The position numbers and the translations under genes were made by a program. From positions 1 through 24,715 of IMG/VR virus record IMGVR_UViG_3300014169_000024: a stretch of 24,715 nucleotides of DNA; one strand, given 5' to 3'. The notes beneath the pieces were generated by a model. The model saw only the letters and a list, made by a program, of their open reading frames with translations. It searched no databases and was not told where the DNA came from. Positions 11,681 to 23,749 of the stretch are shown here, piece by piece. Source of the DNA: a virus. Taxonomy: Duplodnaviria > Caudoviricetes. Position 1 is the stretch's first letter, and the number at the start of each line of letters is the position of its first letter.

Positions 11681-13541
11681 ATGTCTATTACGACAACTGG
11701 CAATTTAGGCCCATTGATCTTGCAAAGCTTAGCTCCTGCAATGCTCTATGTTCCTACGCCAACAATGAACTATATTACTATTTGCGACAAAGTTTCGATG
11801 CCCTCCAATGGTGGGACGACTTGCCGCTTTATGAGGCCAAGAGCCTTACAACCGCCAACTATCCAGTTGGGAAATTCTGGGATTGACCCCCCAGCACAAG
11901 TGCCACAAAGAGACATCATTGATGCTCAAATGGCGTTTTTCGGTCGATTGCAAAATGCTGATAGTGAGTTACTTGCAGCATAACCTGTGCCGAAATAGTT
12001 GATGGTTTGCGACAGGATGTATCATCAACGAGCAAGTGATCCTAAAATAAAAATTTGACTTGTGGGATCACTGTTTTAATGTTGTAGGTTAGGATGATGA
12101 AGATTAGGACGAATATGAAGAGATTTAAGCTCCAAATAGCAACGATGACGAATAGCAATGTCTGCCTCGGGTACTTTTTGTATACCTTGTTTACCTTGTT
12201 TCGCTTGATTTCTATACGTGCCTCGAATCTCATACATTATTTCAAATTCTCTTCGTTTAATGATGGAATATGGAATCAAAAGAGTGCAGAACTCTCTGAT
12301 TCTATAGATAGGACAATACCATCTCCAAATGGGCCTTCGAATAACACCAGACTTTTTGTCGGTGGGAATGGATCGGATAATTCCGTCTATTCTTTCTTGA
12401 AGCCATGTAAGGAGTTTCATCTCGGTGTTTGTAACCGCGATGTATGTCTGATAGATTGGGCTTTTGCAATCTTTGGCTCTTGTAATGGGCCTAGATATAT
12501 GAATAGACCCTTCTCCATCCATAATTCCTGCGAGGTATCCAATCTCTTGCTCAGAGAGGGTTCTTCCGTAAAAATCAGTCATGATTTACCTATACTGCAT
12601 TATTGTGGAGCACTGTAACATATGCTACATATTACTGCAACCATTAAAGCTATAAATTCCGCTATATGCTGGAAACTCCTAAAGCTATCAGTACCAAAGT
12701 GTGAAAATCTGATAGATGAACAATGGACAATCAGCAGGGAAGGCCCAACTGGGAACCCTCAGAGACTACACGCGGAACACGAAAGTGAAGATATAGTCCG
12801 ATCTTATGTGAGAGCATAAGAGATTAGCAGAAATGCCTAATCCCCTCGCAAGAGGAGTAACAATAATGTCAAGATCAAGAGGGTGTTTTAGCTTGGGTAA
12901 GCGAACGCTTAGCCGTAGCTATGCGTCAGGCTGAGGACTTGATTTTAAGAGATTATATTATAAGCGCAGCTAGCGAAATCAATGCCGGCGGCGGAACTAA
13001 TGGTGACAATCCAACCAATCTCGGTGTATCCGACTTTAGCTTGGTTGCCACTACTTTAGATACCAATAATGCGTATAAATTTACGTCTGGTATCGAAGGA
13101 ATGGATCGCTTTGGTACAGGCCCAGTCCGTTCAGCATACTTTATGCTGTCGTCTACTGAGCTGCAAACCGATATGGATGGCTTAACTGGTTCAGGATTTT
13201 TGTCCCAGTGGAATTATCCTACTAACAGCTCTGCGCTTCCAAGTGAATTTGGATCGGTATTTAACATCCGAATTCTGACCTCATCTGAGGCTCCAGTAGC
13301 TCGCGGTGCGTCTGCTAATAATAACGATGTTTACTATAACACAGTTACAGGAAAGCAGGGCGTTACGCATATAAATCAAGATGGCTTCTCAATGAATCTG
13401 ATTTATAGAGATCCTTACTATTCTGGGATGTTAGCCCAGAATGCGACCTTGGCCGTTAAATTCGCCCAAGCGCAGGCTCTCACCCAAGACACTGCCGTGC
13501 GCAATCTCCTTTGCACACGCTTAAGCAATCTGGGGGTGTAA
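11681..13541 (+). CDS. major capsid protein, N4-gp56-like; spliced join(11681..11944,12012..12043,12869..13541), 322 aa
   Basis: Joined exons total 969 nt in one frame: ..QMAFFG|TGCIINEQVIL|QDQEGVLAWVSERLAVAMRQAEDLILRD..; also EFGSVFNIR and DPYYSG.LAQ motifs. Confidence 0.88.
11945..12011 (+). other. 67-nt coreless group I-like mini-intron
   Basis: Exon ends in U, insert ends in G; GCCGAAA(11989) pairs with TTTCGGT giving a U.G at the junction; CCTGT(11984) pairs with 3' exon ACAGG. Confidence 0.75.
12044..12868 (+). mobile_element. group I self-splicing intron (825 nt)
   Basis: P1 GTGATCCT/GGGATCAC with U.G; P3 TTCCGC/GCGGAA; P4 TGCTG/CAGCA; P7 GACTA/TAGTC in CAGAGACTACA and AAGATATAGTCC; GNRA-capped P8/P9; terminal G. 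Confidence 0.95.
12076..12582 (-). CDS. single-motif LAGLIDADG homing endonuclease, antisense within the intron
   Basis: YLAGIMDGEGSI motif; own promoter TTGCAG(12640)-17-TACAGT. Confidence 0.9.
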   Translation of the reverse strand: MTDFYGRTLSEQEIGYLAGIMDGEGSIHISRPITRAKDCKSPIYQTYIAVTNTEMKLLTWLQERIDGIIRSIPTDKKSGVIRRPIWRWYCPIYRIREFCTLLIPYSIIKRREFEIMYEIRGTYRNQAKQGKQGIQKVPEADIAIRHRCYLELKSLHIRPNLHHPNLQH

Positions 13542-14735: not shown

Positions 14736-15326
14736 ATGCCAAGATGGCCAGGTCGATCTTTGCAAATGAGGAAAATTTGTACTATTTGTAAAACAGAAAA
14801 AGATAGAAGTGAATTTCCTTCTCAACGAGGAAATTATGTAAAAGAAAAATGCAAGCCTTGTCATACTGCTTTCAATAGAGAAAGGCGAATTAAATGGAGA
14901 AAAGAAAATCCAAAAAAATATCAAGAGCATTTAGATAAAAAGTTTATAGAATATCGTCTAAAAAGAGGACTTGATCCAAAAAGGCAAAGAAAGCCCCATC
15001 GAAAGTTTCAAGGGAGTATAAATAATGGTGGCTATAAAGAATTTAGAGGCCAACGTTTTATGTCCCATCCGTGTTGTGACAAAAGAGGAAGAATTTTAGA
15101 ACATAGAATGGTTATGTATGACCATTTAAAGAGGGCTCCAATAGGAGAAGAAACGGTACATCATAAAAATGGAATCCGAACAGATAATCGGATTGAAAAT
15201 CTTGAGTTATGGACTAAAAATCATGGTCCTGGTCAACGTGTGGAAGATGTCTTAAACTTCTGCATTGAATTCCTGAAAAAATACGGATATGAAGTTATAA
15301 AGAAAGAAGATATACGTATAGATTGA
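14736..15326 (+). CDS. free-standing HNH homing endonuclease
   Basis: EHRMVM..HL.R...ETVHHKNGIRTDNRIENLELW; N-terminal CxxC...CxxC. Confidence 0.92.
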   Translation: MPRWPGRSLQMRKICTICKTEKDRSEFPSQRGNYVKEKCKPCHTAFNRERRIKWRKENPKKYQEHLDKKFIEYRLKRGLDPKRQRKPHRKFQGSINNGGYKEFRGQRFMSHPCCDKRGRILEHRMVMYDHLKRAPIGEETVHHKNGIRTDNRIENLELWTKNHGPGQRVEDVLNFCIEFLKKYGYEVIKKEDIRID

Positions 15327-18542: not shown

Positions 18543-21200
18543 ATGCCAGAGCAAATCTATATTGGTAACTTTGCAAAAGGTCTTACCACTAGTAGACTTC
18601 CATTTGTCATTGATAACGACGCTTTTCCAACGATGCTCAACTTCTATTCATGGAGAGGAAGAGCTAAAAGAAAAAGAGGGACGATCTTTCTTGGACAGTT
18701 GCAGATTCAGGTTCAATCTGTAGCGACTGCAACGCCTCCTGCTAATTGGCAAATAGGAACATTAGTCACCTTAAGCGGCGCTGGTGCTGGCTCTGGAAAT
18801 CTCATAACATCCGCGAGCGCTCCGAGTTCATCATCAATTACGCCTGGCTCTATTACGCTTTCAGATGGGACGAATACCTACACTGATACGACTCAAAATG
18901 GGATTCTTACAGGGACTCCAGCAGGATCAGGAACAATTAATTATGCGACTGGCGCATTCACAATTACAGGAGGTGCAGCAAATGGGGTGGTTACGGGAAC
19001 TTTTTCTTTCTTTCCTGGCACTCCTGTTATGGGTTTGCGTGATTATGCTTATAACTCAACTCCTTCTATACCACCGGTAAGGGCTCTATATCCCAATACG
19101 ATGGCTTTTGACATTAAAAAGGCTTATCAAATCTATCAAACCTCCAGCGCGAATACGTTCTACAACGTCACCTACTATAAATCTTCTTCAAATCCTTTCT
19201 CATGGAGCGGTCAGGACTACCAGCAATTTTGGATAACAAACTATCAAGGCGCATTATGGGCAACGAATAATGTTCCGGGTTTAAACAAAGCCACCGGAAC
19301 TTATGTTTCAGGAAGCGGAACAACTGCCATTGTAATGACATTAGCAGGTTCTGGCGTACCGACTCTTGTTGTTGGTGATTATCTTTGGTTCAATGAATGG
19401 GGATCGAATACCATTAATTTACAAACTGGCCAAGTGACAAATGTTAGCGGTAGCGATTACACTGTAACGTTTGCAAGCAGTGTAACGGCTTCCAGCACGG
19501 GTTTTGTTCAACTTTTAACTGCCAGCGTTCCGGGCCAAGACGGAATTAAATGGTATGATGGTGACCCAACTACGCATACAGGGCTACCTACGGCTACTGG
19601 GCTTGGTTGGGTTAACTTTTCTCCCCCATTAACCGCAGCAACGGTTTCAATAGATGATGAAACAGCTGCTAAGTATTATTTAGTAGGTGCATTGGCGATT
19701 CTTCCCTTTAAAGACAGGCTTTTATTCTTCAGTCCTTGGATTCAGACAAGCTCTGGCAATCCGATTCAATTGCAAGACGTGGTACTTTGGAGTTGGAATG
19801 GAACTCCATATTACTCATCTTTAACTCCGGCTGGGGAAACTAGTGATGTAAGAGCATATTATCAAGATCAAACAGGACTTGGAGGAAATCTTCCTGCGGG
19901 AACAGGACAGCCTATCGCTACTGTAACTAACAATGAAGACGTTTTGATTATCGGTTTTGGAGGATCTGGTAGAAAAACAAGATTTGTCTATACAGGAAAC
20001 GACTTGCAGCCCTTCTTATTCTATAATATTAACTCAGAACTTCCTTCGGATAGCACGTTTTCAGCAATTACATTAGATAAAGGGGCTTTAGATATTGGTG
20101 GATATGGCATAGCCATGACCGATCAACAATCGAGTCAACGTGTCGATTTAGACATTCCTGATTCAGTTTTCCAAATTCAAGGATTAAACAATGGAGCCCA
20201 AAGAGTTAATGCAGTCAGAGACTTTTATAGAGAATGGATCTACTTTAGCTATCCTGTCAATAACAGCCCTTGGAAATTTCCAACACAAACATTCCTATTT
20301 AATTATCGAGACAACACTTGGGGTGTTTTATATGAAAATTATACAGCTCATGGATCTTTCAGACCCATGATTAAAAAGTCGTGGTTGACTATAGGATATA
20401 GTTCCTGGAATAGCTGGAGAGAGCCATGGAATTCCGGAGCTAATTCGCCAAGCTTTCCAAGCGTTATAGCAGGAAATCCACAAGGTTATGTATTAACTAT
20501 TGGCCAAGGAAGGGGAGAGGCGACTTCAGGGACAATTATAGCAATTGCAAGTTCATCAGGAGGCACGCAAATCACGTCGATTAACCATTGCGTAAGAGTT
20601 GGAGATTATCTCTATTTCTCCGGACTTCTTGGTACAACGTCTATAAATGGTTTAATTGGACGAGTTATATCTACAGCAGATGCCAATACGTTTGTGGTAG
20701 ATTTACCGTTCCCATCAGGAACATATTTAGGTCTTGGCAAGTTCACACGTCTATCTCAGCCGCTCTTGCAAACCAAGCAATTTCCTGTATATTGGGATCA
20801 GGGTAGACAAACGCGTCTATCAACGCAAAAATACTTAATGGACTACACAGCAAATGCTCAAGTCACCGTCAATGTTTACCTTTCCCAAGATTCTGACGAT
20901 GTTTGGAATACTCCTCAGCCTCTTAGTAGTACTTCCGCTCTTGTATACAGTCAACTTATGTATACTTGTCCTGAATCTACTAACATTGGTCTTACACCTG
21001 CCAATACCAATCTTCAAATGCCTACAGCTGAAGGTCAACATCAAATCTGGCACAGATTTAACACAAGTTTAGTTGGAGACAGTATTCAAATTGGAATCAC
21101 CTTATCAGATAGTCAAATGCGTAATTTAACTTACGCAACTTCAGAAATTACTTTACACGGAATGCACTTGACCGTAGACAAATCTTCACATTTGGCCTGA
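18543..21200 (+). CDS. tail nozzle / DNA-stabilization protein (P22 gp10 / tubular B-like)
   Basis: 885 aa, beta-rich; GRAKRKRGT near the N-terminus and FKDRLLFF motif; follows the adaptor. Confidence 0.65.
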   Translation: MPEQIYIGNFAKGLTTSRLPFVIDNDAFPTMLNFYSWRGRAKRKRGTIFLGQLQIQVQSVATATPPANWQIGTLVTLSGAGAGSGNLITSASAPSSSSITPGSITLSDGTNTYTDTTQNGILTGTPAGSGTINYATGAFTITGGAANGVVTGTFSFFPGTPVMGLRDYAYNSTPSIPPVRALYPNTMAFDIKKAYQIYQTSSANTFYNVTYYKSSSNPFSWSGQDYQQFWITNYQGALWATNNVPGLNKATGTYVSGSGTTAIVMTLAGSGVPTLVVGDYLWFNEWGSNTINLQTGQVTNVSGSDYTVTFASSVTASSTGFVQLLTASVPGQDGIKWYDGDPTTHTGLPTATGLGWVNFSPPLTAATVSIDDETAAKYYLVGALAILPFKDRLLFFSPWIQTSSGNPIQLQDVVLWSWNGTPYYSSLTPAGETSDVRAYYQDQTGLGGNLPAGTGQPIATVTNNEDVLIIGFGGSGRKTRFVYTGNDLQPFLFYNINSELPSDSTFSAITLDKGALDIGGYGIAMTDQQSSQRVDLDIPDSVFQIQGLNNGAQRVNAVRDFYREWIYFSYPVNNSPWKFPTQTFLFNYRDNTWGVLYENYTAHGSFRPMIKKSWLTIGYSSWNSWREPWNSGANSPSFPSVIAGNPQGYVLTIGQGRGEATSGTIIAIASSSGGTQITSINHCVRVGDYLYFSGLLGTTSINGLIGRVISTADANTFVVDLPFPSGTYLGLGKFTRLSQPLLQTKQFPVYWDQGRQTRLSTQKYLMDYTANAQVTVNVYLSQDSDDVWNTPQPLSSTSALVYSQLMYTCPESTNIGLTPANTNLQMPTAEGQHQIWHRFNTSLVGDSIQIGITLSDSQMRNLTYATSEITLHGMHLTVDKSSHLA

Positions 21201-21204
21201 TAAA

Positions 21205-21314
21205 ACCTCACCACACCCTTCCAATCCGTTCCATACACCACCATGCCTGACCACACCGAGGCTCACCCCGCCAGACCAGGCCGATCCGTTCCGTATCCCA
21301 CCATACCGTTCCAC
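21205..21314 (-). ncRNA. 22-unit pentamer array (NN-GGH), putative gapped guide RNA
   Basis: Strict 5-nt phase; 19/22 units carry GG at positions 3-4; variable NN decodes to codons 21063-21107 of the adjacent gene. Confidence 0.8.
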
Positions 21315-21318
21315 TAAT

Positions 21319-21378
21319 CTACAATACCTCAAATTTGACAACTTGAAATCTTCCAAATGTTGGCCTAAAATCTCCTAT
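21319..21378 (-). pseudogene. 3' relic of a RAMP/Cas7-like protein gene
   Basis: IGDFRPTFGRFQVVKFEVL* Gly-loop-like ending; in-frame TAA immediately upstream. Confidence 0.65.
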
Positions 21379-21511
21379 TTACTCTATCTGAAAACATAGG
21401 GACTTTTCCTACTTCCATACAATATCGGGCTTTGTCTGAGAAAAACTGCATCGAGTTGTGAATTAAATTTTGAATGTCTTCTCTAGAAAAAATATATCTT
21501 TTGGCCACTGT

Positions 21512-21739
21512 CTATATATCCTTTTTTTTAATTTCTAATAGTTGCGTATGAAAGTCTTTGATTTCATCATGAATTGCATGATTAAAGTTCACACTTTCCA
21601 TTCTAATTTCCCAGATTAGATCTCTATGAGCCCTCAACATGCTATCCATATGACGAATATCTGTACGCGATTCCGTACGGTTCCATATAAATAAACCGAA
21701 GACACCTAAGAAAAATATTATAAACTGAACCCATTCCAT
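21512..21739 (-). CDS. small membrane-anchored coiled-coil protein
   Basis: N-terminal TM, SRTDIR and KDFH motifs. Confidence 0.7.
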   Translation of the reverse strand: MEWVQFIIFFLGVFGLFIWNRTESRTDIRHMDSMLRAHRDLIWEIRMESVNFNHAIHDEIKDFHTQLLEIKKKDI

Positions 21740-22581: not shown

Positions 22582-22830
22582 CTAAGTCAGCTTCTTTTTT
22601 AATGAAAAAGTGTCAAAAGGATTGAAATTTCTTCTCATGGCATCTTTCAAGTCTTTTTTCTTATCAAACTCATGGTGCGTTCGTATTGATGCCAGATAAA
22701 TCAGTCTTGCTTTATTCAATGCAATCAGTTCCTTGTGTAACTTTTCAATTTCTTCCTTTTTTTCATCCATTATTGACTGAATTTCAATCAAAGTCTCTTC
22801 GGAAAAGGCTTGGTTATCCATTATTGACAC
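22582..22830 (-). CDS. coiled-coil hypothetical protein
   Basis: Overlaps the groES end. Confidence 0.55.
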   Translation of the reverse strand: MSIMDNQAFSEETLIEIQSIMDEKKEEIEKLHKELIALNKARLIYLASIRTHHEFDKKKDLKDAMRRNFNPFDTFSLKKKLT

Positions 22831-23078
22831 ACAATCGCCAGAATCTGATCTTCGTAAATAACAAGATACTTCTCTCCCTTTTCCTCAATTGGAGTTCCTG
22901 TATGAGGCGGAAGAATAACGATATCATCTTTAAGTAGATTGGAATCCACATCGCTGCCTTTTGCAATTACAGATGCCCTAAAATATTTTTTCTCGTTAAC
23001 TTCAATGATAAGCTTTTTTTCGTCTTTTACTTCTTCGATTACCTTGACGACAACTCGTTTACCGACAGCTTTTAGCAT
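22821..23078 (-). CDS. groES: GroES-like co-chaperonin
   Basis: LKAVGKRVVVK...VIAKG...DIVI...GT.IE..GEKYLVIYEDQILAIV. Confidence 0.85.
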   Translation of the reverse strand: MLKAVGKRVVVKVIEEVKDEKKLIIEVNEKKYFRASVIAKGSDVDSNLLKDDIVILPPHTGTPIEEKGEKYLVIYEDQILAIVCQ

Positions 23079-23197
23079 GGAAAATCTCCTTTAGCCAGAA
23101 ACTTACCATTTGCCAAAAAAAAATACAAATGAGATATATATTCGCAGGAATTGCGTTGATATCGTTCCTCCCCCTGAACCGTAAGTAAGGGGGTTTT

Positions 23198-23749
23198 CTA
23201 TTTCCTTTCAAAGTCAATGAGGTTATAAAGATCGTTTCTGAGTTTTCCAATATCCTCGATGATCTTGTTTAAGGAATCAAGTAGTCCTTCAAGTTTTGGG
23301 ACAGCAAAACTTAATCCGACTTTTTGCAACAAAATAGAAATTTCGTCCAATGTATGTATTCCAAAATTTCTCATACGAAACAAAGAATCATAAGTATATA
23401 AAGACACATCTTTTAAATTCTTTGCTCCCAGTTTGATTAGACAATTAATCGCTCTTCTGGATAAAGGCAGTTGTGATATTGGTAATTGGGTAATTTTTTC
23501 TACATCTCCATATAGAAGAAATTTATTAATCTGCTCAATAGCATAAACATAACGCATTCTTACAGATTGCCCTGTAATGTTGTGCATTTCTCCTATTTCT
23601 TTAAAAGTTTTACATTCATTTAATTTTAGATATAAAAAATATATATCACGATCTTTAAGATGAGGAACCTTGGTCAGATCACCTTGTTTTATGAATTCTA
23701 AGGTTTCTTTTGTAATTTTGAAATGGTTATAGGGTTCTTTCATAGGCAT
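23198..23749 (-). CDS. sigma region-4-like HTH fused to an RNA polymerase alpha-CTD-like domain
   Basis: KTFKEIGEMHNITGQSVR HTH; ISQLPLSRRAINCL...RMRNFGIHTLDEI...GLSF. Confidence 0.8.
   Translation of the reverse strand: MPMKEPYNHFKITKETLEFIKQGDLTKVPHLKDRDIYFLYLKLNECKTFKEIGEMHNITGQSVRMRYVYAIEQINKFLLYGDVEKITQLPISQLPLSRRAINCLIKLGAKNLKDVSLYTYDSLFRMRNFGIHTLDEISILLQKVGLSFAVPKLEGLLDSLNKIIEDIGKLRNDLYNLIDFERK

Follow-up and report, generated by a model that had tools for sequence, protein, structure and literature searches.

A VIPR-type guide array aimed at relatives' alleles of the adjacent phage tail gene and linked to a likely tolerant own allele

The array, the tail gene and the vipr remnant

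We analysed a stretch of 24,715 nucleotides from a virus of the Caudoviricetes (IMG/VR record IMGVR_UViG_3300014169_000024; the whole stretch is called the window), in which a five-base repeat array of the VIPR type lies between the 3' end of a tail gene and the remnant of a vipr gene. VIPR combines the RAMP protein Vipr with a vrRNA of GGY/NN repeats and is described for SUSP1 and a P. fulva prophage in the original papers (10.64898/2026.04.26.720920, 10.64898/2026.04.26.720927); its vrRNA consists of 9-16 tandem pentamers of the YNNGG type. The phage contig represents about 62% of a genome, about 38% being missing. Scanning it for GG with a period of five bases yielded one clear array, and the locus comprises the following features:

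18543..21200, plus strand: 885-amino-acid gene from the open reading frame call, putative virion gene by predicted function, with the target site near its 3' end
21063..21107, plus strand: guide footprint, codons 841-855 (T S L V G D S I Q I G I T L S), where the carrier's own (self) allele matches in 9/15 units
21087..21104, plus strand: six codons 849-854 (QIGITL), a perfect self match to guide units 13-18
21312-21203, minus strand: VIPR-type array of 22 GGN-NN units from the period-5 scan, ending two bases from the tail gene stop
21218..21292, minus strand: the guide, units 5-19, whose skipped base is the wobble position
21319..21378, minus strand: vipr remnant from a profile match, last 19 codons (21378-21322) plus stop, the G-loop end
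21379..21380, no strand: junction at which vipr homology ends, with a loose end at 21379 in the sequencing runs X5 and X7

The 885-amino-acid gene at 18543-21200 probably encodes the tail nozzle, or 'stabilization protein', of a podovirus-type tail. Its product falls into the 'Stabilization protein family' cluster of the ESM Atlas (0.96), and the gene is located two genes downstream of a weak match to the SU10 adaptor, with a gp53-like tail fibre gene as neighbour. We found 776 homologues of the protein, none of them among named phages, and no sequence match in Pfam, PHROG or PDB.

Nineteen of the 22 array units start with GG, the third base being T or C in 13 and A in 6 of these 19, and the same array is present in independent contigs (X4; X5, X7 and X8). 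The NN pairs of units 5-19 (AC TC CT CT GG GA TC GT CA AT GG AT AC TT AG) follow codon positions 1-2 of the footprint, where 21/30 bases (70%) of the self allele match; units 1-4 and 20-22 are without a match in the tail gene. A gap of 97 bases separates target and array, and the guide has the sense of the tail mRNA, so that pairing would be with the template strand. Seven of the nine mismatched bases are silent, resulting from three Ser and one Leu family swap. An earlier reading of the letters without database searches (the sequence-only reading) had listed six mismatching codons, and all are exactly as it gave them (Ser AGT 21066, Leu TTA 21069, Val 21072, Ser AGT 21081, Ile 21084 and Ser TCA 21105).

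By itself the self match is weak. A score of 21 is reached by 76/1000 shuffles in the whole window, which is not significant, and by 23/2000 shuffles within 2.1 kb of the array, which is modest. Judged from the window-wide figure only, the repeat might resemble a nearby gene by chance.

At the array no Rfam family was detected, and a sigma-70 promoter scan gave chance level (2 vs 2.8). The 3' flank of the array is the tail gene read in antisense, with fold z values of -1.35 and 0.72, without likeness to the SUSP1 tails and without a structured 3' tail of the type II pseudoknot kind. Units 1-5 resemble units 13-17 (21205-21314, 60-base spacing), a possible internal duplication. A direct repeat around the array (21181-21206 and 21346-21370) was considered as target-site duplication and dropped, both copies being coding (tail gene end and Vipr G-loop). 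Exact IMG/VR scans returned 0 other arrays with the guide core and 0 copies of the array itself.

The vipr remnant, which the sequence-only reading had missed, aligns with positions 186-203 of the vipr profile hidden Markov model (E 1e-5), was the sole match in the contig in a separate search (E 2.8e-7) and shares 61% with the Vipr of L121 (L numbers denote the loci compared). The junction is spanned by an exact 20-base match in X1, probably the source run, in which two contigs also end, so that an assembly artefact is unlikely. Together with arrays, L121 carries a whole vipr gene of 210 amino acids at the corresponding position behind the tail gene. The family of this Vipr comprises 1693 proteins and aligns with the SUSP1 Vipr ALH47069.1 (HHalign 97.7%, E 1.6e-12), whose residues H17, C173, D177, W178 and R179 and 1+3 arrays fit the published Vipr. 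A model of the L121 Vipr built from a 118-row alignment has a predicted local distance difference test score (pLDDT) of 88, a single-sequence model having given 33, and adopts a Cas7/Csm3 fold (Foldseek E 1e-7). Arrays adjoin 77 of 80 viral loci of the family (the best 80 of 394).

Guide matches in the tail gene family

We collected tail gene loci from viral (61), metagenome (best 80 of 320) and genome (3) sequences, leaving 118 distinct sites once 25 duplicates and L062, the record of the window itself, had been removed; 66 of these relatives have at least 60% and 26 at least 70% identity. The threshold for a target, an 80% NN match, was taken from the VIPR paper, and 'array-less' means that there is no array within the available flank of up to 10 kb.

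The guide scores 19-28 of 30 across the 118 sites, and 69 of them reach the 80% cut-off, below which the self allele lies with 70%. The highest scores (28/30) are found in L014, L074 and L082, so that the sequence-only reading was right in proposing that the guide targets the relatives' allele of the adjacent gene, 28/30 contrasting with 21/30 in self. The array-less L001 scores 27/30. In 3.9 Mb of related loci reading with a skip of one base gives 28/30, whereas skips of 0, 2 and 3 bases give 21, 19 and 20, and 200 shuffles of the guide reach at most 23. The top matches are all at the homologous tail gene site and in codon frame, and the tail gene match is the top one among 191 arrays scanned against 6.4 Mb. 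The guide reads TSLLGDSVQIGITLS, the family consensus being TSLIGDSVQIGITLS. A relaxed target scan of IMG/VR returned L014 and L024 only, and relatives with other alleles co-occur in the same runs.

The match at the family level is decisive in showing that the guide targets the tail gene family, whose alleles form a graded series at a single conserved peptide (19-28 of 30). It also refutes chance resemblance at the family level, 28/30 standing against at most 23 in the shuffles with the top matches in frame at the homologous site, and leaves that explanation a negligible probability.

The carrier's own allele

A second carrier of the guide, a sister phage, was recovered from lake runs of two studies (X5, X7 and X8). 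Its contig spans 20904-21379 with 28 differences in 476 nucleotides and no gaps; the two carriers are about 94% identical and not independent. In the X5 piece covering 20952-21316 all 20 differences could be placed. Those in the array affect four scaffold bases and one NN base in the non-matching unit 2, and 0/30 of the read bases of the guide are changed. In the footprint they affect four wobble bases and change Val844 to Ile, the self states AGT, TTA, AGT, ATT and TCA being kept, and by hand count the sister's self allele also scores 21/30. The expectation that array carriers share the recoded form was thus borne out for Ser, Leu and Ile, in close kin. Past 21379 the sister contig continues in frame and Vipr-like for the 30 bases shown (at least 10 codons), and, with vipr sequence continuing next to an allele that also scores 21/30, the low self match predates the loss of vipr. 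In a single X2 contig of low depth all 8 listed differences fall into 21005-21039, with none in 21040-21229 and none in 20975-21004, which we read as recombination just upstream of the target and only doubtfully as co-conversion of the resistant allele with the element.

The sister also bears on the idea that the guide is a fossil copy of the ancestral adjacent gene, lacking a present target, and that guide and gene drifted apart. Adjacency, the lack of a perfect target and the truncated effector would fit such an origin, but we regard it as very improbable: the read bases are identical in the two carriers while scaffold and wobble bases differ (a weak argument, about 0.13 by chance), drift is unlikely to have produced three two-base changes of serine codons in a single lineage, and extant relatives match 28/30.

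The mismatches of the self allele had been called non-random, which holds modestly. All three serines are opposite to the guide in 1/35 relatives having three serines, and a column-wise null gives P 0.04-0.08 for a self score of 21 or less, a range in which 13/118 relatives fall (2/26 at the 70% identity level). The claim does not extend to Leu854 (TTA), the fifth six-fold site in the footprint, which matches the guide. As for the proposed substitution of Val for Leu, the residue typical of the family at position 4 is Ile, which makes Val there a change between two codons that both mismatch the guide. The prediction that array-less relatives have TCN, CTN, TCN and AGY failed, the full guide codon form occurring in 1/118 relatives. 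Each self codon class is common (39, 34, 16 and 11 of the 66 relatives with at least 60% identity), those of Ser842 and Leu843 being the majority classes (16/26 and 15/26).

In a stronger form of the interpretation, selection by the guide recoded the carrier through silent Ser/Leu/Arg swaps, and cassette and resistant allele spread as a linked, drive-like unit. Several observations point in this direction. The similarity of self to its relatives at codon positions 1-2 dips around the footprint only, the 17 lowest of 149 windows starting at codons 841-857, and the deficit of the footprint relative to its flanks is the largest of 27 sequences (-2.47; next L073 with -2.15; L079 has an alignment artefact). 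Four states in codons 800-885 are absent from all 26 close relatives and cluster at 844, 848, 857 and 860 (P 0.019, post hoc), p for the local patch of rare codons being about 0.02-0.08 overall, likewise post hoc. In addition, the Ser, Leu and Ile states are common to both carriers, and the gap between target and array is 97 bases. Two of the rare states are located beyond the footprint:

21111..21122, plus strand: rare self states Ser857 (AGT) and Arg860 (CGT)

Ser857 occurs in 0/66 relatives, which mostly have Ala, and CGT for Arg860 in 0/26 close relatives. However, with 857 and 860 outside the footprint, just Ile848 of the four private states lowers pairing, since Val844 is not shared by the sister and pairs no worse than Ile would. 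Both Ser842 and Leu843 belong to majority classes, Leu854 is unswapped, the carriers are close kin, and there is no nuclease. Moreover, two vipr-directed guides in other loci are not accompanied by self depletion (17 vs a mean of 17.7; 18 vs 16.7). Taken together, this stronger form is unlikely.

The two guides just mentioned (L173 10154 and L193 3119) read other phages' vipr in codon frame with 21-22 of 24. As here, the own vipr of L173 carries Ser AGT at a TC of the guide and Ile at a position that the guide spells as Val, with a score near the family mean. Across relatives the conserved serines of codons 781-867 are drawn to an unusual degree from both the TCN and the AGY family. The three serines of the footprint exceed the average of the gene in this respect (P 0.013-0.05), but other C-terminal serines nearby are mixed to about the same degree, so that the effect is not specific to the footprint.

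We read the self mismatches mainly as standing Ser/Leu variation on which survival acted as a filter, perhaps sharpened by a few local changes. There is a weak hint of local selection on the self footprint, and deliberate recoding of the self allele is unproven.

Proposed mechanism and known systems

We favour, with a probability of about 0.6, a reading in which the guide would silence the relatives' tail gene via Vipr, the carrier allele (21/30) being a poor enough target to be tolerated; the locus is likely to hold a VIPR guide for kin exclusion linked to a resistant, or tolerant, allele. By analogy with published VIPR work the array would be transcribed after vipr and coated by Vipr, and the complex would pair its NN bases with the template strand, skip the wobble bases and block late transcription of the relative. 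The most plausible setting would be a prophage expressing the minus-strand cassette against a superinfecting relative, because tail proteins could complement in trans during co-infection, whereas a repressed prophage supplies none. A temperate lifestyle is suggested by the early region, which is lambdoid in look (RecT, a helix-turn-helix pair and an O-like protein). Cassette and tolerant allele, being 97 bases apart, would stay together through linkage, and the cassette would persist only beside an allele that it does not hit. With the effector truncated in the contig, the guide is either an orphan, which would depend on Vipr supplied by another element or encoded in the unassembled remainder of the genome, or a recent relic. 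Since the records of L121 and the window share a name prefix, Vipr in trans is conceivable.

A number of observations weigh against kin exclusion with a tolerated self allele. The rest of the vipr gene is absent from the contig, so that about 62% of the genome holds no intact vipr, and in the sister vipr is visible for just 30 bases beyond the junction. No perfect target was found among the 118 sites, an exact IMG/VR scan returned 0, and 49/118 relatives are below 80%, self thus not being unique in its low score. No integrase was seen in the 24.7-kb contig. The arrays of L011, L023, L042, L073 and L121 have no target above shuffles in the loci compared, so that targeting of the adjacent gene is not a general trait of this phage family. 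Finally, units 13-18 match self in 12/12 bases near the 3' end of the guide, and a natural footprint of six units, 18 bp, as in this self run, is described for SUSP1 vrRNA4 in a recent study (10.64898/2026.10.15.759431).

This run makes partial binding of the self allele a live rival: the guide would tax or regulate the carrier's own late transcription, and the loss of vipr would be an escape from autoimmunity. Assembly of the filament on DNA starts at the 3' end of the guide, as the structural paper shows (10.64898/2026.04.26.720927), and the truncation of vipr in the contig could be explained in this way. However, vipr sequence appears to be retained in the sister, whose allele likewise scores 21/30 and which is seen in three runs from two studies, and published vipr-null phages are interpreted as borrowing Vipr rather than escaping it; we therefore regard partial self-binding as quite unlikely.

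The sequence-only reading had likened the locus to homing. Neither the window nor L121, L073 or L185 has a nuclease reading frame at its cassette, so that homing is an analogy and exclusion is the better description. It is doubtful that a selfish RNA-guided cassette travels here with its own resistance allele, silencing the relatives' copy of an adjacent essential gene, and that the carrier has escaped a wobble-blind guide by silent six-fold swaps (Ser, Leu, Arg). If so, serine codon switching at the end of the tail gene would be the mark left by a long arms race around VIPR in a single phage family.

Vipr genes or arrays occupy nearby late-operon slots in L073, L185, L011/L152, L023 and L042, and Vipr of the L121 clade was not found in the records of L001-L004, L014, L023 and L042. 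Arrays without adjoining vipr are located in L011 (15632-15418), L023 (11256-11187) and L042 (4565-4649), the L011 record having vipr elsewhere (L152). Other Vipr-like lineages occur in the same slots, namely L073 1414-1974, with a weak match to the Pfam RAMPs family, and L012 12514-13158, a weak Vipr-like match preceded by a second gene and a degenerate repeat; we take these as several independent cassette insertions. The gene upstream of the vipr remnant is informative on insertion:

21512..21739, minus strand: 75-amino-acid gene upstream of the vipr remnant, present directly behind the tail gene in the array-less L001

As this gene adjoins the tail gene in L001, the guide cassette is an insertion in that slot. 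Elsewhere in the window the major capsid gene (11681-13541) is broken by a group I intron (Rfam RF00028, 12592-12820), and the L185 capsid gene has an interruption too, which is shorter. On the opposite strand, the accompanying open reading frame 12076-12582 (minus strand) matches phrog_5046; we take it to carry a LAGLIDADG-like motif. A free-standing HNH endonuclease gene is located at 14736-15326 within the late operon, and at 22821-23749 (minus strand) the late operon encodes GroES and a fusion of sigma region 4 with the RNA polymerase alpha-CTD, GroES recurring in relatives.

Free-standing homing endonucleases of T4-like phages (SegF and MobE type) are selfish genes beside an essential gene that distinguish a relative's allele from the carrier's, tight linkage holding element and resistant allele together. 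The cassette resembles them in lying beside an essential gene, tightly linked to a likely resistant allele. It differs in that there is no nuclease at the cassette and no clear co-conversion tract, and in that RNA-guided repression would take the place of cutting and gene conversion.

VIPR, orphan guides and lower self scores are already published. In one study, solo vrRNAs in VIPR-null phages and F5 satellites are guides kept after vipr loss and target kin (vipr, vrRNAs, satellites and REP elements), self-match is below non-self match for vrRNA-targeting guides, and escape is held to need amino-acid-changing mutations (10.64898/2026.10.15.759431). The present guide is similar in being aimed at relatives, in its lower self match and, as far as the 24.7 kb of the incomplete genome show, in lacking a functional vipr; it differs in that its target is a relative's tail gene and that 7/9 mismatched bases are silent. 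A narrow literature search returned no report of escape through six-fold codons or of guides directed at an adjacent tail gene of the own family, and the accessible parts of the VIPR papers hold no measurement of mismatch tolerance or self/non-self discrimination.

With VIPR itself the locus shares a five-base repeat array right after the vipr gene, a homologous family with the G-loop GD(W/F)R, a one-base skip in wobble register, a target in another phage's gene and a self score under 80%. Here, however, the guide is directed at a conserved structural gene from the carrier's own family, located beside the cassette, the self homologue is present and 70% matched, and vipr is truncated. The third base is A in 6/19 GG units, 15 of 22 units match, and neither a SUSP1-like tail nor a vap gene was found, vap being absent from the window and L121; both features vary between VIPR types. 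The locus thereby extends natural VIPR targets to structural genes of kin, adds sister phages with the same guide, one of them with a truncated vipr, and is a natural counter-case to the VIPR argument that wobble skipping bars silent escape, its allele series being a ready test set for mismatch tolerance and for the discrimination of self from non-self.
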